DNA from: a virus
Taxonomy: Duplodnaviria; Caudoviricetes
Strand: one strand, 5' to 3'
Virus record (IMG/VR): IMGVR_UViG_3300033515_000006
Location: 1 to 55,467 of that record
Length of the DNA stretch: 55,467 bases
The notes under the pieces were generated by a model. That model was not told the DNA's origin, searched no databases, and saw only the letters and a program-made list of their open reading frames with translations. This document shows, piece by piece, positions 45,146 to 53,746 of the stretch. Each line of letters starts with the position of its first letter. The first letter of the stretch is position 1. A program made the translations under genes and the position numbers.

Positions 45146-45806
45146 CTATTTCTAAATTAATTGCATTTAACGAGTCGTAGTCAAGTACATTATTTTGTAA
45201 AATAGTATGTAATCTTGGGTCAATTAGATTAACAAATGGTTTTCTAACTTCTTCATCACCTATAAAAAGAAAGATCATACTTGTAGTAGAATTGTTAATA
45301 ATTGTCAAAACTTCTTTTGAAAATTCAATCCATTTACTTTTTTGAGAACGTTTTGCTCCTTTTAATTGACTTAAAGCAGTATTATATAAAAATATACCTT
45401 GTGAAATCCAATTGTCTAACGTATAATCAATTTCATGTTCCGTTTCTTGATTATAATTATTAACTTTATTTAATAAATTTATTAAATGTTCATCATAATC
45501 ATTATTATAATTATTTTTATTAGCAAAAGCAACACCATTACTTCGATAAGTAATTTCTGGTTTACAATCTATAATACAAACATTAATTTCTTGTAAATCT
45601 AATTTATTAAATATTGAAAATAAATCTTTTTTTAAAGGATAAACTTCTTTATTTTTATATGATTCAAATATTGAATACATTATATTAGACATTACTTCAC
45701 CATGTATAAATTTATATAATCTATTATACCAACCATTAGACATTAAATCTCTATAATTTATTTGCAGATTATAATCATAATTTTTATTAAAATATGTTAC
45801 TCTCAT
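45108..45806 (-). CDS. Family-1 uracil-DNA glycosylase fold, catalytic motifs lost
   Basis: EVYP, NGVAF, NWISQGIFLYNTALS, WIEFS and final IKW retained; GQDPY replaced by DCKPE; HPSP absent. Confidence 0.75.
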   Translation of the reverse strand: MRVTYFNKNYDYNLQINYRDLMSNGWYNRLYKFIHGEVMSNIMYSIFESYKNKEVYPLKKDLFSIFNKLDLQEINVCIIDCKPEITYRSNGVAFANKNNYNNDYDEHLINLLNKVNNYNQETEHEIDYTLDNWISQGIFLYNTALSQLKGAKRSQKSKWIEFSKEVLTIINNSTTSMIFLFIGDEEVRKPFVNLIDPRLHTILQNNVLDYDSLNAINLEIDGINGKSCRIKW

Positions 45807-47511
45807 TTTCGTTTAAAAATTTATCATTAGCAGGAACATAATCTGACGATACAGATAAATGATCTGGAATTTCAATTTCAATAAGAGGATCTTGATTAAT
45901 GTAATCATCATATGGTATTGAATATCTAATTTTTTTATCTAATTGTTCTTTAAAAAAACCAGGTTTTATTTCTTTATAAACTTTTTTAACATTAATATTT
46001 TCTACAAGATTAATGTTTGAAGATTCCCATTTAATATTATTATATGTTTTAATATTTTCTTCATCATAATTAATAAAACCTTTCTGATTAAAATTTTCAG
46101 TTAAATCTAATCTTTTATTAAAATAATTATAAACTTCTTTATGAAAAGTATTAGTGTTAATATTTACATTTCTTTGAATTTGATCAGATAACCATGTTAA
46201 AAAATGTCCATTTTTAATATAACCATCTTTGTTTAATAAGATAGATTCTGTATTATTTTTAACATAATCTATAATAAAAACATTTAAATATAAAAAATTT
46301 ATAATTTTATTAATATTATATGTTGGTGTATGAATTCTAAATTCAATAGTTTGTTTATTACCAAAAATAAGAGGTATTAAATTTGTAAAATAATAACGTG
46401 TATTAATATTCCATTTTTGATTACCATTAGGATCTCTATGATGTGATTTTACATTATCTAAATTATAATCATAATTAACCATGTCATCACCTTCTGATAA
46501 ATATCTAAATAAAACATTAAAATTTTTGTTAATATTTTTTTTATCAATAACAGGGTCTAAATAAAAATTAACTTTTTCAATAGGTAATGGTTTACTATAT
46601 TCTTTACGTTTAATACCAAAATTATATTTTTTATATAAAGGAAACATTTGAAATATTTGATTTTGATAAACCGACATAAATTTCCAAAAAGCTAAAATAA
46701 ATTCAGGAGTTCTTGGAATATTTCCAATATGTAAATGTGTAGAACAAGAAATATCATATTCTGTACGTTTTTTTAATTCATATACAGAATCAATAAGAGC
46801 TTGTAAACCTTTTTTACCTTCTAAAGGAATAGTTACATATTCTAAACCTGAAATACTACCATCTCTTAAAGGAATTAAAGGTAATTGATTAAGTTTTTTA
46901 TTTGTTAAAATACCTTTAGTTGTTTCAAACTCTAAACCAAATGTATAATCTTTTAAATATTTACCATATGTTTCTACATTTTTACAAATAACAGGTTTAT
47001 AGTTTTGTTCATAATTTAAAACAAATTGTTGAGTAATACCTTTTGAATCGTAAGGTAAACTTTCTTTATATCTTTTTTCAACTTCTCTTAACGTATTAAG
47101 TTCATTAACTGTTTTTAAAGAAATATGATAAAAAATACCAGTTGATCTACATTCTCTATAATATAAAGGTATTATTTTTTCATTAATACATATTAATTTT
47201 TCATGATTTTTTAAATAAATTTCAACATTATACAAAGAATTTAATGTGAAATAACCTAAAATAGGATTTTCATTATTAAAATTAACAACACCTTCAATTA
47301 ATTCATTATTTTTAATTACATATTCTTTTTTAGAATGATCAAAAACTAATCTATTTTTTGTAAATCTAATATATCTATTATTAATTAAATAAATATCTCC
47401 TGAATTTTCAATTTTATTATTACCTATTAAATAATATTCACCTTTTATACGTCTACAAAAACTTTCAGGATAATTTTGACCATTAATTGTTTTTACAATT
47501 TTCTCTTCCAT
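45787..47511 (-). CDS. Amidoligase (COOH-NH2 ligase, glutamine-synthetase-like fold)
   Basis: FGLEFET, RDGSI, LEYVT, THLHIG, RYYFTN and TIEFRIH. Confidence 0.85.
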   Translation of the reverse strand: MEEKIVKTINGQNYPESFCRRIKGEYYLIGNNKIENSGDIYLINNRYIRFTKNRLVFDHSKKEYVIKNNELIEGVVNFNNENPILGYFTLNSLYNVEIYLKNHEKLICINEKIIPLYYRECRSTGIFYHISLKTVNELNTLREVEKRYKESLPYDSKGITQQFVLNYEQNYKPVICKNVETYGKYLKDYTFGLEFETTKGILTNKKLNQLPLIPLRDGSISGLEYVTIPLEGKKGLQALIDSVYELKKRTEYDISCSTHLHIGNIPRTPEFILAFWKFMSVYQNQIFQMFPLYKKYNFGIKRKEYSKPLPIEKVNFYLDPVIDKKNINKNFNVLFRYLSEGDDMVNYDYNLDNVKSHHRDPNGNQKWNINTRYYFTNLIPLIFGNKQTIEFRIHTPTYNINKIINFLYLNVFIIDYVKNNTESILLNKDGYIKNGHFLTWLSDQIQRNVNINTNTFHKEVYNYFNKRLDLTENFNQKGFINYDEENIKTYNNIKWESSNINLVENINVKKVYKEIKPGFFKEQLDKKIRYSIPYDDYINQDPLIEIEIPDHLSVSSDYVPANDKFLNENESNIF

Positions 47512-47517
47512 TTTGTT

Positions 47518-52408: not shown

Positions 52409-53309
52409 GATAAATTCCTTTTTCTATTGCTTTTTTAACTATTAATTTTGGTAAAACTTCTTTATATTTTTGTAAAGTAATTTCACCAAATGAAGGCGCT
52501 GAACAACTTTCACAAATATTCCATTCAGGATTTTGTCTTTCAACTCCATCTTTAGAACCTTGAACCATTACATCAAAAGCACATATGTCTAATCCTAAAG
52601 CATTTTTAGCATTAATACAATCTTGTACAATATCATTCCAATTATTTGGTTTTTTAAAACTAGGATTATTTTCTAATGCCCAACTACATACATCATCATG
52701 ACGTTGCCAAGTATCTTCTGGAGCATCATTTTTAAGTAATTTTCTACATGCATAAAAACAACCATCATTTGTAACATGAAGTCTATATTCACGAGTCATT
52801 TTTATAAATTCTTCAAAAATATAATTATTTAAATTCTTACCGACAATCCATTGTTCTAGTTCTTGTCTACTATCTATTTTAGTATTACCAACACCTCTTG
52901 AACCAAAATGAGATTTAGCTACTAATGGGAAAGGTATATCTGTATCATTTTGACCATCTATACCACAAATTAACATTAAATGTTTACCTTCAACATCTTC
53001 AGTAAATTCTCCTTTACAAGTCCACCAATGTGCAGTTTTAACACCAGCTTCAGTAAACTTCTGTTTCATTAACAGTTTGGAAGCAGAATTTTTAATACTT
53101 TGTATTGAATTAATTTCTACTCTATTTATATTATCATTTGTTTCAGTAGTAGAACCTAATCTTACAATACTTCTAAAAGGTAATTTATGTAATGTTCTAC
53201 GTAATCCATTATGTGATGGATGACGACTTCTAATTTGAGGAAAATATCTACCTAAAGGAAGTCGAACTTCTTTTTCTATTTTTTTAAAAAATTTTTTTAT
53301 TATTGCCAT
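52401..53309 (-). CDS. ATP-grasp peptide ligase (RimK/YheC-like)
   Basis: SASKL, FPLVAK, GSRGVG, REYRLHV, ALGLDICAFDV and ICESCSAPS. Confidence 0.85.
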   Translation of the reverse strand: MAIIKKFFKKIEKEVRLPLGRYFPQIRSRHPSHNGLRRTLHKLPFRSIVRLGSTTETNDNINRVEINSIQSIKNSASKLLMKQKFTEAGVKTAHWWTCKGEFTEDVEGKHLMLICGIDGQNDTDIPFPLVAKSHFGSRGVGNTKIDSRQELEQWIVGKNLNNYIFEEFIKMTREYRLHVTNDGCFYACRKLLKNDAPEDTWQRHDDVCSWALENNPSFKKPNNWNDIVQDCINAKNALGLDICAFDVMVQGSKDGVERQNPEWNICESCSAPSFGEITLQKYKEVLPKLIVKKAIEKGIYHE

Positions 53310-53311
53310 AT

Positions 53312-53746
53312 TTATTCAATTGAATGTCTAGAAGTAAATTTTTCTTCTATTGTTATTTCTTTTTTTAAATTTTCTTTCCATTTAATATAATCACCTGATT
53401 CAATTTTAGGTTTTCCAATTATAGATTTATTATATAAATAAATAACACATTCACCATATGATGTTTGTATAATTTTTTTATTATATATTGGAGTATAATT
53501 TAACACATTTATTCCGTAAAAATAATCTAAATTTAATAAATCATTTTCAGTTATTGAATATATTTCTGTTAAAATTGAAGTATTTCCATTTTTAACAACA
53601 CCTCCATAATTTTTAGATATTGAATATAAATCATATATTGGTTCAGTATAATATACTCCTAAATAATTTTTACTTTTTAAATAAAGATGTTGTTCACCTT
53701 TAAAACGTAACATGTCATATACTGCTACTAATATTAATTTTTCCAT
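53312..53746 (-). CDS. Gamma-glutamylcyclotransferase (AIG2-like) fold, degenerate
   Basis: VAVYDMLR (cf. VYGTL), TEIYSI, LDYFYG (cf. LDxxEG) and IESGDY. Confidence 0.7.
   Translation of the reverse strand: MEKLILVAVYDMLRFKGEQHLYLKSKNYLGVYYTEPIYDLYSISKNYGGVVKNGNTSILTEIYSITENDLLNLDYFYGINVLNYTPIYNKKIIQTSYGECVIYLYNKSIIGKPKIESGDYIKWKENLKKEITIEEKFTSRHSIE

Follow-up and report, generated by a model that had tools for sequence, protein, structure and literature searches.

A phage cluster of enzymes predicted to make and cut glutamate-type amide bonds has been known since 2009. In phiEco32 and SU10 (Kuravirus) and in LUZ24 and PaP3 (Bruynoghevirus) it comprises the same five enzyme families found here, namely the type-2 COOH-NH2 ligase (PF14395, a family that carries the name of phiEco32), Amidoligase_2, an Ntn GATase, an ATP-grasp protein and a GGCT. 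The published function is a prediction that citing papers credit to Iyer et al. 2009 and Hardies et al. 2013, and in RIO-1-like podophages the phiEco32/LUZ24-type cassette also goes by the name 'peptidoglycan modification cassette'. The portions of the located literature that were available only restate the 2009 prediction and report no demonstrated product, as an earlier note on this DNA had said. The closest known systems are g037-g041 of Cellulophaga phage phi14:2 (Crassvirales, Steigviridae, Asinivirinae) and gp027-gp034 of crAss phage cr108_1, whose order, primase-GGCT-ATP-grasp-(variable)-COOH.NH2 ligase-Ntn GATase-amidoligase-UDG-RusA-like, is that of the locus described here.

The window analysed is the whole stretch of 55,467 nt. 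The assignment of its AT-rich phage (about 24% GC) to the crAss-like phages, as a relative of phi14:2, is well supported; a 1498-aa virion protein neighbouring the cassette shares 48% identity with its phi14:2 counterpart. It is also well supported that the cassette, located in the replication arm, represents, in the crAss lineage, the cassette of phiEco32, LUZ24 and RIO-1 that is called "amidoligase" or "peptidoglycan modification" cassette. What goes beyond the known cassette is that one ligase gene is, judging from its sequence, interrupted by an intron of the self-splicing type.

Gene content and conservation of the cassette

According to the ORF calls, the cassette occupies positions 45787-53746 of the minus strand as a co-directional, gap-free array, in which the spacing between neighbouring ORFs ranges from a 20-nt overlap to a 21-nt gap. 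The earlier note had placed a contiguous cluster here between a primase and a UDG-like gene, and its ends were exact (Amidoligase_2 stop at 45787, GGCT start at 53746). Its inventory of a GGCT, an ATP-grasp protein, an unknown, two GATases, a ligase, an Ntn protein and an amidoligase agrees with the family and fold searches. The features are as follows:

53312..53746, minus strand: GGACT/AIG2-like gamma-glutamyl(amine) cyclotransferase, 144 aa (PF06094, 1.6e-10; phrog_2520)
52401..53309, minus strand: ATP-grasp carboxylate-amine ligase, 302 aa (phrog_2599, 9e-25; rimK_fam, 3.5e-8)
52007..52408, minus strand: 133-aa ORF of no family, with an 8-nt overlap with the ATP-grasp stop
51275..51985, minus strand: C26a, Peptidase_C26/class-I GATase-fold amidohydrolase, 236 aa (PF07722, 5.7e-27; PF00117, 3.3e-14)
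50604..51275, minus strand: C26b, Peptidase_C26/class-I GATase-fold amidohydrolase, 223 aa (PF07722, 1.4e-18)
50175..50597, minus strand: type-2 COOH-NH2 ligase, predicted exon 1, 141 codons (phrog_3815 positions 3-138, 4.1e-31)
49737..50174, minus strand: predicted group I intron, 438 nt, without ORF (fold, covariation, same-site intron in a relative)
49338..49736, minus strand: type-2 COOH-NH2 ligase, predicted exon 2, 132 codons plus stop (phrog_3815 positions 139-266, 5.5e-35; PF14395)
47518..49338, minus strand: Ntn (class-II) glutaminase-domain protein, 606 aa (GATase_6, 5.4e-9)
45787..47511, minus strand: Amidoligase_2 (GS/GCS-fold carboxylate-amine ligase), 574 aa (PF12224, 8.9e-6; phrog_2443, 1.9e-34)

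Alignments with 9-15 phage homologues show no variation at the predicted catalytic residues of the cassette enzymes. Among these residues are E61 of the GGACT (12 sequences), in which YDML stands in place of the usual YGSL motif; Cys102, His218 and Glu220 of C26a (12 sequences); the Cys, His and Glu triad columns of C26b (11 sequences); and E194, E196, D217, E224, H259, H261, R372, E390 and R392 of Amidoligase_2 (14 sequences), a protein that passes the PF12224 cut-off of 22 with 26.2 bits. The ATP-grasp protein shares 47% identity with phi14:2 g038 and gives no Pfam match at E<=0.01. Its AF2 model (pLDDT 82) has a RimK/Ddl-type fold, with RimK (5zct), Ddl and LysX as top Foldseek PDB matches (E about 1e-9), and PurK is its top PDB match by sequence profile (E 1.6e-4). 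Both C26 proteins score higher on Peptidase_C26 than on PF00117; their best NCBIfam matches include two gamma-glutamyl-amide hydrolases, both far under cut-off, and they match the guaA and carA glutaminase models weakly. The Ntn protein has a GTG start codon immediately before the catalytic Cys. In its AF2 model (pLDDT 74) residues 2-257 match GlmS (VIA Z 23.6), PurF and EgtC (Z 20.6), residues 316-487 form a confidently modelled domain and residues 535-606 a helical hairpin. The 133-aa ORF matches no family in Pfam, PHROGs or NCBIfam and only unnamed clusters in the Atlas. With regard to the flanks, the primase belongs to phrog_12622 (1e-56), and the UDG-like protein matches ung (6e-22, under the NCBIfam cut-off) and lacks the canonical catalytic Asp and His.

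Seventeen related loci were fetched with the ATP-grasp protein alone and then searched by tblastn with the window proteins. The ligase was found in all 17, the Ntn GATase and Amidoligase_2 in 16 each, a C26 GATase in 15 and the GGCT in 11, whereas a homologue of the 133-aa ORF was present in a single locus (L018, 31% identity). The grouping of the cassette genes is not due to chance, since they recur in these loci. The order is shared with phi14:2, cr108_1 and 15 IMG/VR contigs. In the window the GGCT adjoins the ATP-grasp gene, C26b the type-2 ligase and the Ntn GATase Amidoligase_2; among the related loci a C26 gene is the immediate upstream neighbour of the ligase in 14 of 17, and the Ntn GATase that of Amidoligase_2 in all 15 that show both. 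As these loci belong to a single phage clade whose synteny is conserved, the counts are not independent events. GATase-ligase pairs alternate in the relatives (C26a-ATP-grasp, C26b-ligase, Ntn-Amidoligase_2).

A predicted group I intron in the type-2 ligase gene

The type-2 ligase had been taken for a single gene. The family was right, but the gene consists of two ORFs (50597-50160 and 49739-49338) split by a 438-nt insert, and these cover positions 3-138 and 139-266 of phrog_3815, a COOH.NH2 ligase profile with 268 positions. The first part aligns with the N-terminal half of intact ligases; the second matches PF14395 at 2.8e-5 (23.9 bits, just below the cut-off of 25). Joining the two gives a stop-free product of 273 aa, which is 58% identical to the intact ligases of loci L019 and L020 and aligns with them without a gap at the junction. 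The insertion site falls within the codons of a conserved motif, NLRCAG|GHVAIGY.

The insert is most probably a group I intron of the self-splicing type. Its fold energy is -112.8 kcal/mol (z = -9.4 vs shuffles), the 5' splice site lies at a U·G pair of the P1 helix, and the 3' terminal base is G. P1, P2, P3, P4 and P6 are kept in comparison with the intron at the same site in locus L008, with 6 compensatory pairs. The 3' core (P7, P7.1, P7.2, P8, P9 and P9.1) comprises 33 pairs, 24 of them with compensatory changes among 40 sequences. Covariance model R1 gives 106 bits on the window intron, which is itself a row in the training alignment of the model.

One important question is whether the insert is instead a spacer with a terminator-like hairpin, leaving a ligase pseudogene or two polypeptides. 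The upstream ORF does extend 15 nt into the insert, as far as the stop at 50160, and the ATG of the downstream ORF consists of the three final insert bases. A hairpin rich in GC, with a run of T behind it, is found at about 49895-49865, and an Rfam search of the insert returns no group I intron at E<=10. However, the hairpin and T run are helix P7.2 of the structure that covaries across the family, and the terminal (A/U)UG is kept throughout the intron family irrespective of the host gene. In the window all 33 core pairs and 35 P1-P6 pairs are standard pairs, the orthologous intron of a relative interrupts the same codon and carries a LAGLIDADG gene, and both exon lengths are multiples of three, with a join collinear with intact homologues. 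A non-intron origin is hence very doubtful.

The element resembles phage group I introns with P7.1/P7.2: R-like GUAACGCAUAGG and S-like AUAUGCUGA elements pair as P7, and P7.1 and P7.2 lie between P7 and P3', followed by P8, P9, P9.1 and the terminal G. For its 3' half, similarity of 70-74% was found to stretches that carry no annotation in phiCD211-type Clostridioides phages, in crAss cr6_1 and cr128_1 and in Staphylococcus/Mammaliicoccus phages. Such introns of Staphylococcus, Clostridioides and crAss-like phages would belong to the IA type. Unlike the related phage introns, it lacks a homing-endonuclease gene, and about 170 nt of AT-rich hairpins replace the ORF; a cassette ligase is also an unusual host gene for a group I intron.

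Predicted chemistry and competing explanations

The cassette most likely works by add-and-remove chemistry on glutamyl-type amides. Three ATP-dependent carboxylate-amine ligases, one ATP-grasp and two of the glutamine-synthetase/GCS fold, would activate a carboxylate as acyl-phosphate, most probably the gamma-carboxylate of glutamate, or else a C-terminal or side-chain carboxylate, and would join it to the amine of a small molecule or peptide. Gamma-glutamyl groups would be removed or recycled by four Cys- or Glu-based enzymes predicted to act on glutamine/gamma-glutamyl amides (two C26, one Ntn and one GGACT cyclotransferase). Each ligase gene adjoins a hydrolase gene, so the cassette may be read as a series of such steps, by which an amide of glutamyl type would be made or altered in the infected cell; the type-2 ligase would be made only once the 438-nt intron has left the mRNA by splicing. 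EgtC is a gamma-glutamyl-amide hydrolase. The C26 profile preference and the EgtC fold match of the Ntn domain were counted in favour of this chemistry; the lack of a recognised C26 in phiEco32/PaP3 and the departure of the GGCT from the YGSL motif were counted against it, and none of the searches or fold matches points to a particular substrate. The joint reading of a crAss-lineage amidoligase cassette with add-and-remove glutamyl amide chemistry and an intron-split ligase is favoured with moderate confidence. The observation behind the earlier note is confirmed and its interpretation partly supported: 'non-ribosomal peptide' is right only if taken loosely, for ligases of the ATP-grasp and GS folds, and no NRPS domain was reported for the cassette proteins by the Pfam search.

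Modification of peptidoglycan or the cell envelope is unlikely. Here the ligases would add or amidate residues on stem peptides or on polymers of the envelope, bonds of the gamma-D-Glu type would be cut by the hydrolases, and the altered surface would block superinfection. This is the published prediction; Ddl, a cell-wall ligase, is among the top fold matches of the ATP-grasp protein, and the hosts named for the 307 phage records with a type-2 ligase are mainly Gram-negative genera. However, RimK, LysX and PurK fit the ATP-grasp protein equally well, no secretion signal, Mur-ligase or transpeptidase domain was found in the cassette proteins by the Pfam and NCBIfam searches, and the neighbours are replication genes rather than lysis or envelope genes. 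The available portions of the located literature report no experiment.

Providing a synthetase with ammonia is a commoner role of class-I and class-II GATase folds than hydrolysis of gamma-glutamyl amides, so these folds suit glutamine-dependent amidation equally well. Three two-component amidotransferases, in which each GATase passes ammonia to the neighbouring ligase and an ATP-activated carboxylate becomes a carboxamide, with up to three amidations on one substrate, are nevertheless improbable. The alternating gene pairs, the triads of both C26 proteins with their weak guaA/carA matches and the closeness of the Ntn domain to the GlmS and PurF glutaminase domains are consistent with such a scheme, but it leaves no role for the cyclotransferase, phi14:2 has no C26 gene, and a single GATase is recognisable beside the three ligases of the phiEco32 and PaP3 cassettes.

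Protein tagging or tail modification is quite unlikely. RimK-/LysX-like glutamylation of a host or phage protein, or a gamma-glutamyl-lysine link formed on it much as in pupylation, would have the hydrolases and the GGACT as erasers. RimK and LysX/ArgX, among the top ATP-grasp folds, modify protein C-termini, rimK_fam is the best NCBIfam model, PHROGs names the protein 'ribosomal protein S6 glutaminyl transferase', and GGACT-type enzymes, going by the Pfam family name, cut gamma-glutamyl-amines. Against this, the ATP-grasp protein resembles RimK only in its fold (16% identity), and the cassette has no conserved small carrier or substrate gene, its sole unassigned ORF being the one that recurs in a single locus among the 17 relatives.

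Modification of phage DNA or nucleotide precursors, to which the position between primase and UDG-like gene, the adjacency to primase or primase/helicase in three phage lineages, the residues lost from the UDG-like neighbour and the PurK match might point, is very improbable, as none of the ten cassette and flank proteins matches base-modifying, nucleotide-kinase or DNA-glycosyltransferase families (Pfam, PHROGs, NCBIfam) and the cr108_1 cassette adjoins a UDG with canonical motifs, so that the residue loss does not track the cassette.

Comparison with known systems

The assignment to the phiEco32-type clusters made in the earlier note stands, with the same five enzyme families and with the order kept in phi14:2 and cr108_1. 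The cassette proteins of these two phages are 28-47% identical to those of the window. C26 GATases number none in phi14:2, one in cr108_1 and two, plus the 133-aa ORF, in the window, and the ligase of phi14:2 and cr108_1 is a single uninterrupted gene (272 or 267 aa), unlike the gene with the predicted intron. The phiEco32 and PaP3 cassettes differ in gene order, have two extra genes of about 320-400 aa and no assigned function before the ligase, and lack a recognisable C26 hydrolase; next to the ligase they have a gene of roughly 200 aa, which gives no Pfam match and does not resemble C26b at profile level. In SU10 and a PaP3-type phage the cassette adjoins a primase/helicase gene and the amidoligase adjoins the Ntn GATase; in the PaP3-type phage the ATP-grasp gene also adjoins the GGCT. 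A tblastn search with the window Amidoligase_2 returned 5 records from 3 phages and fails to link the crAss and phiEco32/PaP3 versions because this protein is too diverged.

Gamma-glutamyl groups are added and removed in cells by the pairs PuuA/PuuD (putrescine), EgtA/EgtC (ergothioneine) and BtrJ/BtrG (butirosin). Unlike these systems, the cassette has no oxidase, PLP enzyme or carrier protein for a middle step, and the likeness is at fold or family level only, every NCBIfam score being far under cut-off. EgtC and the PuuD model are among the matches of the cassette proteins, and the fold pairings of the cellular pairs adjoin in the cassette: a GS/GCS ligase with a C26 protein, a GCS ligase with an Ntn protein, and an ATP-grasp protein with a GGCT-fold cyclotransferase.

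Cassette layout, phage assignment and co-occurrence

From position 54779 to 44681 all ORFs were located on the minus strand in end-to-end packing, within a very AT-rich window (GC 0.20-0.31) that has its strand switch at about 33.5 kb. Families were assigned with Pfam, PHROGs and NCBIfam, plus the fold in the case of the two modelled proteins (the ATP-grasp protein and the Ntn protein).

Genes of the cassette and its flanks, in transcription order
54779-53748, minus strand: primase, first in transcription order
53746-53312, minus strand: GGACT/AIG2 cyclotransferase (PF06094)
53309-52401, minus strand: ATP-grasp protein, 302 aa (phrog_2599, rimK_fam, fold)
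52408-52007, minus strand: 133-aa ORF of unknown function
51985-51275, minus strand: C26a, Peptidase_C26/class-I GATase
51275-50604, minus strand: C26b, Peptidase_C26/class-I GATase
50597-50160 and 49739-49338, minus strand: type-2 COOH-NH2 ligase, two ORFs jointly (phrog_3815)
49338-47518, minus strand: Ntn-glutaminase protein, 606 aa
47511-45787, minus strand: Amidoligase_2, 574 aa (PF12224)
45806-45108, minus strand: UDG-like protein (ung)
45145-44681, minus strand: weak RusA-like protein

According to the ORF calls, the cassette genes are co-directional and nearly gap-free, with the primase and the UDG-like gene as flanks, and the interval 45787-53746 proposed in the earlier note coincides exactly with the outer limits of the enzyme array. 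The amide-ligation cluster described there is real and was read correctly in outline; its title, which spoke of non-ribosomal peptide ligation, does not hold in the NRPS sense, since no Pfam family of adenylation, thiolation or condensation domains was reported for any scanned protein. A like neighbourhood beside replication genes was found in five annotated phages.

A 1498-aa virion protein encoded nearby showed 48% identity to its counterpart in Cellulophaga phage phi14:2 (27% in the case of Bacteroides phage crAss001), and among 50,697 phage records the ATP-grasp and Amidoligase_2 proteins matched only phi14:2, Leptolyngbya phage Lbo-JY46 and crAss phage cr108_1. On these protein comparisons the window is assigned to an uncultured, phi14:2-type member of the crAss-like phages. 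The source IMG/VR record is a fragment with an estimated completeness of 55%, and megablast of the 10-kb region against phages gave zero matches. Two long tRNA genes (about 89-90 nt) were also observed on the minus strand at 55131-55220 and 55295-55383, just upstream of the replication arm; ARAGORN called one of them tRNA-Leu (aag) and the other a tRNA with undetermined anticodon, and Rfam scored both as tRNA.

The UDG-like protein that follows the cassette shows genuine homology to family-1 UDG (ung, 6e-22, below the cut-off), with DCKPE opposite the GQDPY of E. coli Ung and Lys facing the catalytic Asp. No HPSPLS-like His motif was visible, the alignment with Ung stopping short of this motif. 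The protein may be a non-catalytic or altered glycosylase. The UDG of cr108_1 retains both motifs, and the phi14:2 copy is intermediate (GKEPY). Since cr108_1 has a canonical UDG beside its cassette, the degeneration of the window gene is not linked to the presence of the cassette.

Co-occurrence was analysed by tblastn with the window proteins in 17 loci, namely 15 IMG/VR loci fetched via the ATP-grasp protein alone, plus phi14:2 and cr108_1 (L-numbers denote the contigs and loci fetched for comparison).

Presence of cassette genes in the 17 related loci
Type-2 ligase: 17/17
Ntn GATase: 16/17, missing in L011
Amidoligase_2: 16/17, missing in L015, which ends at the contig edge
At least one C26 GATase: 15/17, missing in phi14:2 and L015
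Primase upstream: 12/17
GGCT: 11/17, with two copies in five loci
133-aa ORF: 1/17

The co-occurrence of these genes across genomes, on which the cluster reading of the earlier note depended, was borne out by the counts for the type-2 ligase, the Ntn GATase and Amidoligase_2. The usual order in the relatives is GGCT, C26a, ATP-grasp, C26b, ligase, Ntn GATase and Amidoligase_2, and the window differs from it in that C26a comes after the ATP-grasp gene. A search of 185,579 species genomes with ligase profile patterns yielded 6 loci only, all of them MAG contigs. Contigs of this kind with close ligase homologues measured 3-86 kb and included L106, L107 (Candidatus Saccharibacteria), L108 (Acetivibrio) and L109 (Turicibacter). 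They are probably phage contigs binned with bacteria and, therefore, their bacterial labels should not be read as hosts.

A predicted group I intron in the type-2 ligase gene

The two ORFs of the type-2 ligase correspond to positions 3-138 (4e-31) and 139-266 (5.5e-35) of the phrog_3815 profile (length 268), and each aligned to the respective half of the phi14:2 and cr108_1 ligases, which are encoded in one piece; PF14395 was matched by the C-terminal half only, with 23.9 bits, slightly below the cut-off of 25. Excision of nucleotides 50174-49737 joins exons of 423 nt and 399 nt into a stop-free frame of 273 aa. This predicted spliced protein aligned end to end with intact ligases, including that of SU10, and was 58% identical to the intact ligases of L019 and L020, with no gaps at the junction NLRCAG|GHVAIGY. 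The interruption falls within the most conserved motif of the protein, where R132, G135, G136, H137, I140 and G141 were invariant in the alignment. The ligase was uninterrupted in 15 of the 17 related loci; L008 is interrupted at the same site as the window, and L014 at another.

The 438-nt insert folded with -112.8 kcal/mol (z = -9.4), a value equalled by none of 100 shuffles. In the P1 helix, which is identical in L008, GGU|AG pairs with CUGCC so that the last exon base, U(-1), lies opposite G, and the insert ends in ...AAAAUG, with the terminal G present. The orthologous insert of L008 (1020 nt) occupies the same codon, has both ends alike and contains a 237-aa LAGLIDADG gene (PF14528, 1.5e-16). 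Comparison of the two inserts showed that 35 of 35 pairs in P1, P2, P3, P4 and P6 are standard in both; six pairs were changed on both sides and two on one side, with compensatory changes in P3, P4 and P6. The 3' core (P7, P7.1, P7.2, P8, P9 and P9.1) comprised 33 pairs, 24 of them compensatory, in RNAalifold analysis of 40 sequences, and in that 40-row alignment the window reads standard pairs at 33/33 positions. The 'terminator-like' hairpin with its T run within the insert is helix P7.2. On account of P7.1 and P7.2 the intron is provisionally labelled IA-type.

The alignment of the 3' core was obtained with a pattern of the R-like element plus the stretch before P3', which was found in 81 IMG/VR stretches and gave 77 full-length extracts (60 distinct). 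About a dozen GC-rich extracts look like chance matches to the pattern. The 39 distinct extracts with the 3'-end motif of the family were kept and, together with the window, formed the 40 rows; the 21 left out included the chance matches as well as several copies that were longer or truncated. R1, a covariance model of the 3' part, was run against the window and the 17 loci. It found a single copy in the window, itself a training row, and outside the training set it matched the Amidoligase_2 gene of L008 (78.8 bits, E 3.5e-15) and the C26b gene of L021 (52.6 bits, E 3.8e-9), as well as four places beyond the cassette in L009, L019 and L020. In related phages, introns of the same family interrupt three of the cassette genes, and the cassette is therefore a recurrent landing site for homing elements.

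Further interrupted genes of the relatives are Amidoligase_2 in L008 (16946-17848), C26b in L021 (11326-12327) and the ligase, at its second site, in L014 (12318-13389). These inserts, of about 0.9-1.1 kb, carry R/S-like elements and internal ORFs; the L014 insert had no match to R1. Very close relatives of the 3' core of the window intron were seen at L035:3134-3335 (a 97.6-kb IMG/VR contig) and L028:11357-11551. Both copies, in large phage contigs, share the P7.2 hairpin with its T run and have a different downstream exon, and therefore the intron lineage has moved between genes.

Rfam gave no group I match in 49600-50300 at the gathering score or at E<=10, only chance-level sRNA matches. 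In L008, L014 and L021 it likewise reported tRNA only and no intron, despite interruptions with ORFs of the homing-endonuclease type, so this test seems insensitive for the present intron family. Among the listed sequencing runs that contain the window stretch none was of RNA, and the DNA runs had small shares (0.06-0.11). From exon continuity and the covariation of the helices, the split ligase is one gene carrying a group I intron, with splicing predicted. Unless the intron, which Rfam misses, is recognised, automatic annotation will call this ligase two fragments or a pseudogene. Self-splicing introns in crAss-like phages are already in print, according to the available part of PMC12386605; the intron in the ligase gene is a new detail for the window.

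Active-site residues and a possible gamma-glutamyl pathway

Residues were checked in alignments of each window protein with homologues from related IMG/VR contigs, the catalytic residues being those that we presume from general knowledge of these families. Amidoligase_2 (PF12224, 26.2 bits, above the cut-off of 22; phrog_2443, 1.9e-34) had an invariant set of Glu, His and Arg residues at the metal and ATP sites, and the type-2 ligase was likewise invariant in its DPE, GGH and Arg columns; in PDB searches with profiles of these two proteins no match fell below E 0.4. The ATP-grasp model (pLDDT 82) had RimK, Ddl and LysX/ArgX as best Foldseek matches (E about 1e-9, TM about 0.5), in agreement with phrog_2599 and rimK_fam, and its Lys, glycine-rich loop, Glu and Asp columns were invariant. 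A PDB search with the single ATP-grasp sequence returned nothing, and its profile returned weak matches to PurK, LysX and GshB. The Cys-His-Glu triad was invariant in the alignments of both C26a and C26b, as was the predicted catalytic Glu of the GGACT/AIG2 protein (PF06094, 1.6e-10), a cyclotransferase that reads YDML in the window and YGSL in most relatives. The 133-aa ORF matched unnamed clusters only in the ESM Atlas.

The Ntn protein begins Met-Cys-Gly, and Cys2 was invariant together with the conserved His, Arg, Asn-Gly and Asp columns. Its residues 2-257 matched glutaminase-type domains of GlmS, PurF, TsnB9 and EgtC (VIA Z 20-24), with Z 23.6 to GlmS and 23.1 to the GlmS glutaminase domain. 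In the fold search with the whole model, the N-terminal domain and the C-terminal helices accounted for the matches, and residues 300-606 gave no usable match in the ESM Atlas. The middle domain (residues 316-487) is conserved and was modelled with pLDDT of about 85, but none of the searches assigned it to a family; beyond it lie a region both acidic and variable and a long hairpin of helices. In 9 of 14 relatives the Ntn ORF opens with about 27 aa of hydrophobic leader (pattern MVKIILILALLQY...NILS) immediately before the catalytic Cys (ORF starts L008:13882, L010:13163, L012:12676, L014:14310, L018:13451, L019:9105, L020:11369, L021:13967 and L022:7289). The leader may act as a propeptide that cleaves itself off, or as a signal or membrane segment; the window gene starts GTG-Cys, without it. 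Judged by their conserved residues, all cassette enzymes look catalytically competent.

The cassette combines three ATP-dependent carboxylate-amine ligase folds with four enzymes from families that act on glutamine or gamma-glutamyl amides, and every ligase of the window adjoins one hydrolase. The ligases would form glutamyl-type amide bonds via acyl-phosphates, and the neighbouring enzymes would strip gamma-glutamyl groups. We tentatively propose a phage-only pathway in which three paired gamma-glutamyl addition and removal steps would lead to an amide metabolite or to a transient tag required for phage replication, a reading that we consider doubtful as a whole. The chemistry of gamma-glutamyl addition and removal as such is preferred because the C26 proteins score higher on the Peptidase_C26 model than on the generic GATase model, because their best NCBIfam matches include gamma-glutamyl-CDP-amidate and gamma-glutamyl-GABA hydrolases (both far under the cut-off, and hence a similarity at family level only), and because the Ntn domain closely resembles EgtC in fold. 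The three adjoining pairs also share their fold combinations with three cellular add-and-remove pairs, namely PuuA/PuuD, EgtA/EgtC and BtrJ/BtrG.

The main alternative, in which the ligases would receive ammonia from the GATase-fold proteins, may hold for some pairs; the GGACT protein has no place in a scheme of pure ammonia transfer. Complex prediction for C26b and the ligase, using the L019 pair, scored 0.27 against a mark of 0.32, which counts neither for nor against their pairing. As regards the target, the cell wall is suggested by the literature and DNA or nucleotides by the position of the genes, neither with direct support. The adjacency of ligases and hydrolases in this lineage narrows the question to gamma-glutamyl addition and removal versus glutamine-dependent amidation. 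If the phage-only pathway is true, it would explain both the near-absence of the cassette from cellular genomes and its retention beside the primase gene, which spans three unrelated phage lineages (crAss-like, Kuravirus and Bruynoghevirus).

Comparison with known cassettes

The type-2 ligase was present in 307 of 50,697 phage records, in which phages of Pseudomonas (120) and of Escherichia (93) predominated. An amidoligase or 'peptidoglycan modification' cassette has been named for phiEco32, 7-11, LUZ24, PaP3, tf, PA11, RIO-1 and CW02 in the passages available from papers that include PMC5498523, with Iyer et al. 2009 and Hardies et al. 2013 cited there as the source of the idea. In the accessible parts of other papers, the cassette genes are considered nitrogen-metabolism AMGs, or the superinfection idea is repeated. 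No report of a cassette product or of a knockout phenotype was found in the literature as available to us, in which Iyer 2009 and Hardies 2013 are represented by the passages citing them. Of the phage enzyme modules that lack an assigned product, the cassette is one of the more common, and the genes around its type-2 ligase are conserved across families of phages.

A C26 partner for the ligase in all versions of the cassette was also considered, and it was rejected by hhalign on SU10 and the PaP3-type phage, where the gene of about 200 aa adjoining the ligase showed no similarity to C26b. In SU10 (Kuravirus) and the PaP3-type phage the order is ligase, unknown, amidoligase, GFAT-like Ntn GATase, ATP-grasp, GGCT and primase/helicase. 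The window copy brings no new chemistry to this set; it is a cassette of the known kind, one more, somewhat enlarged, member.
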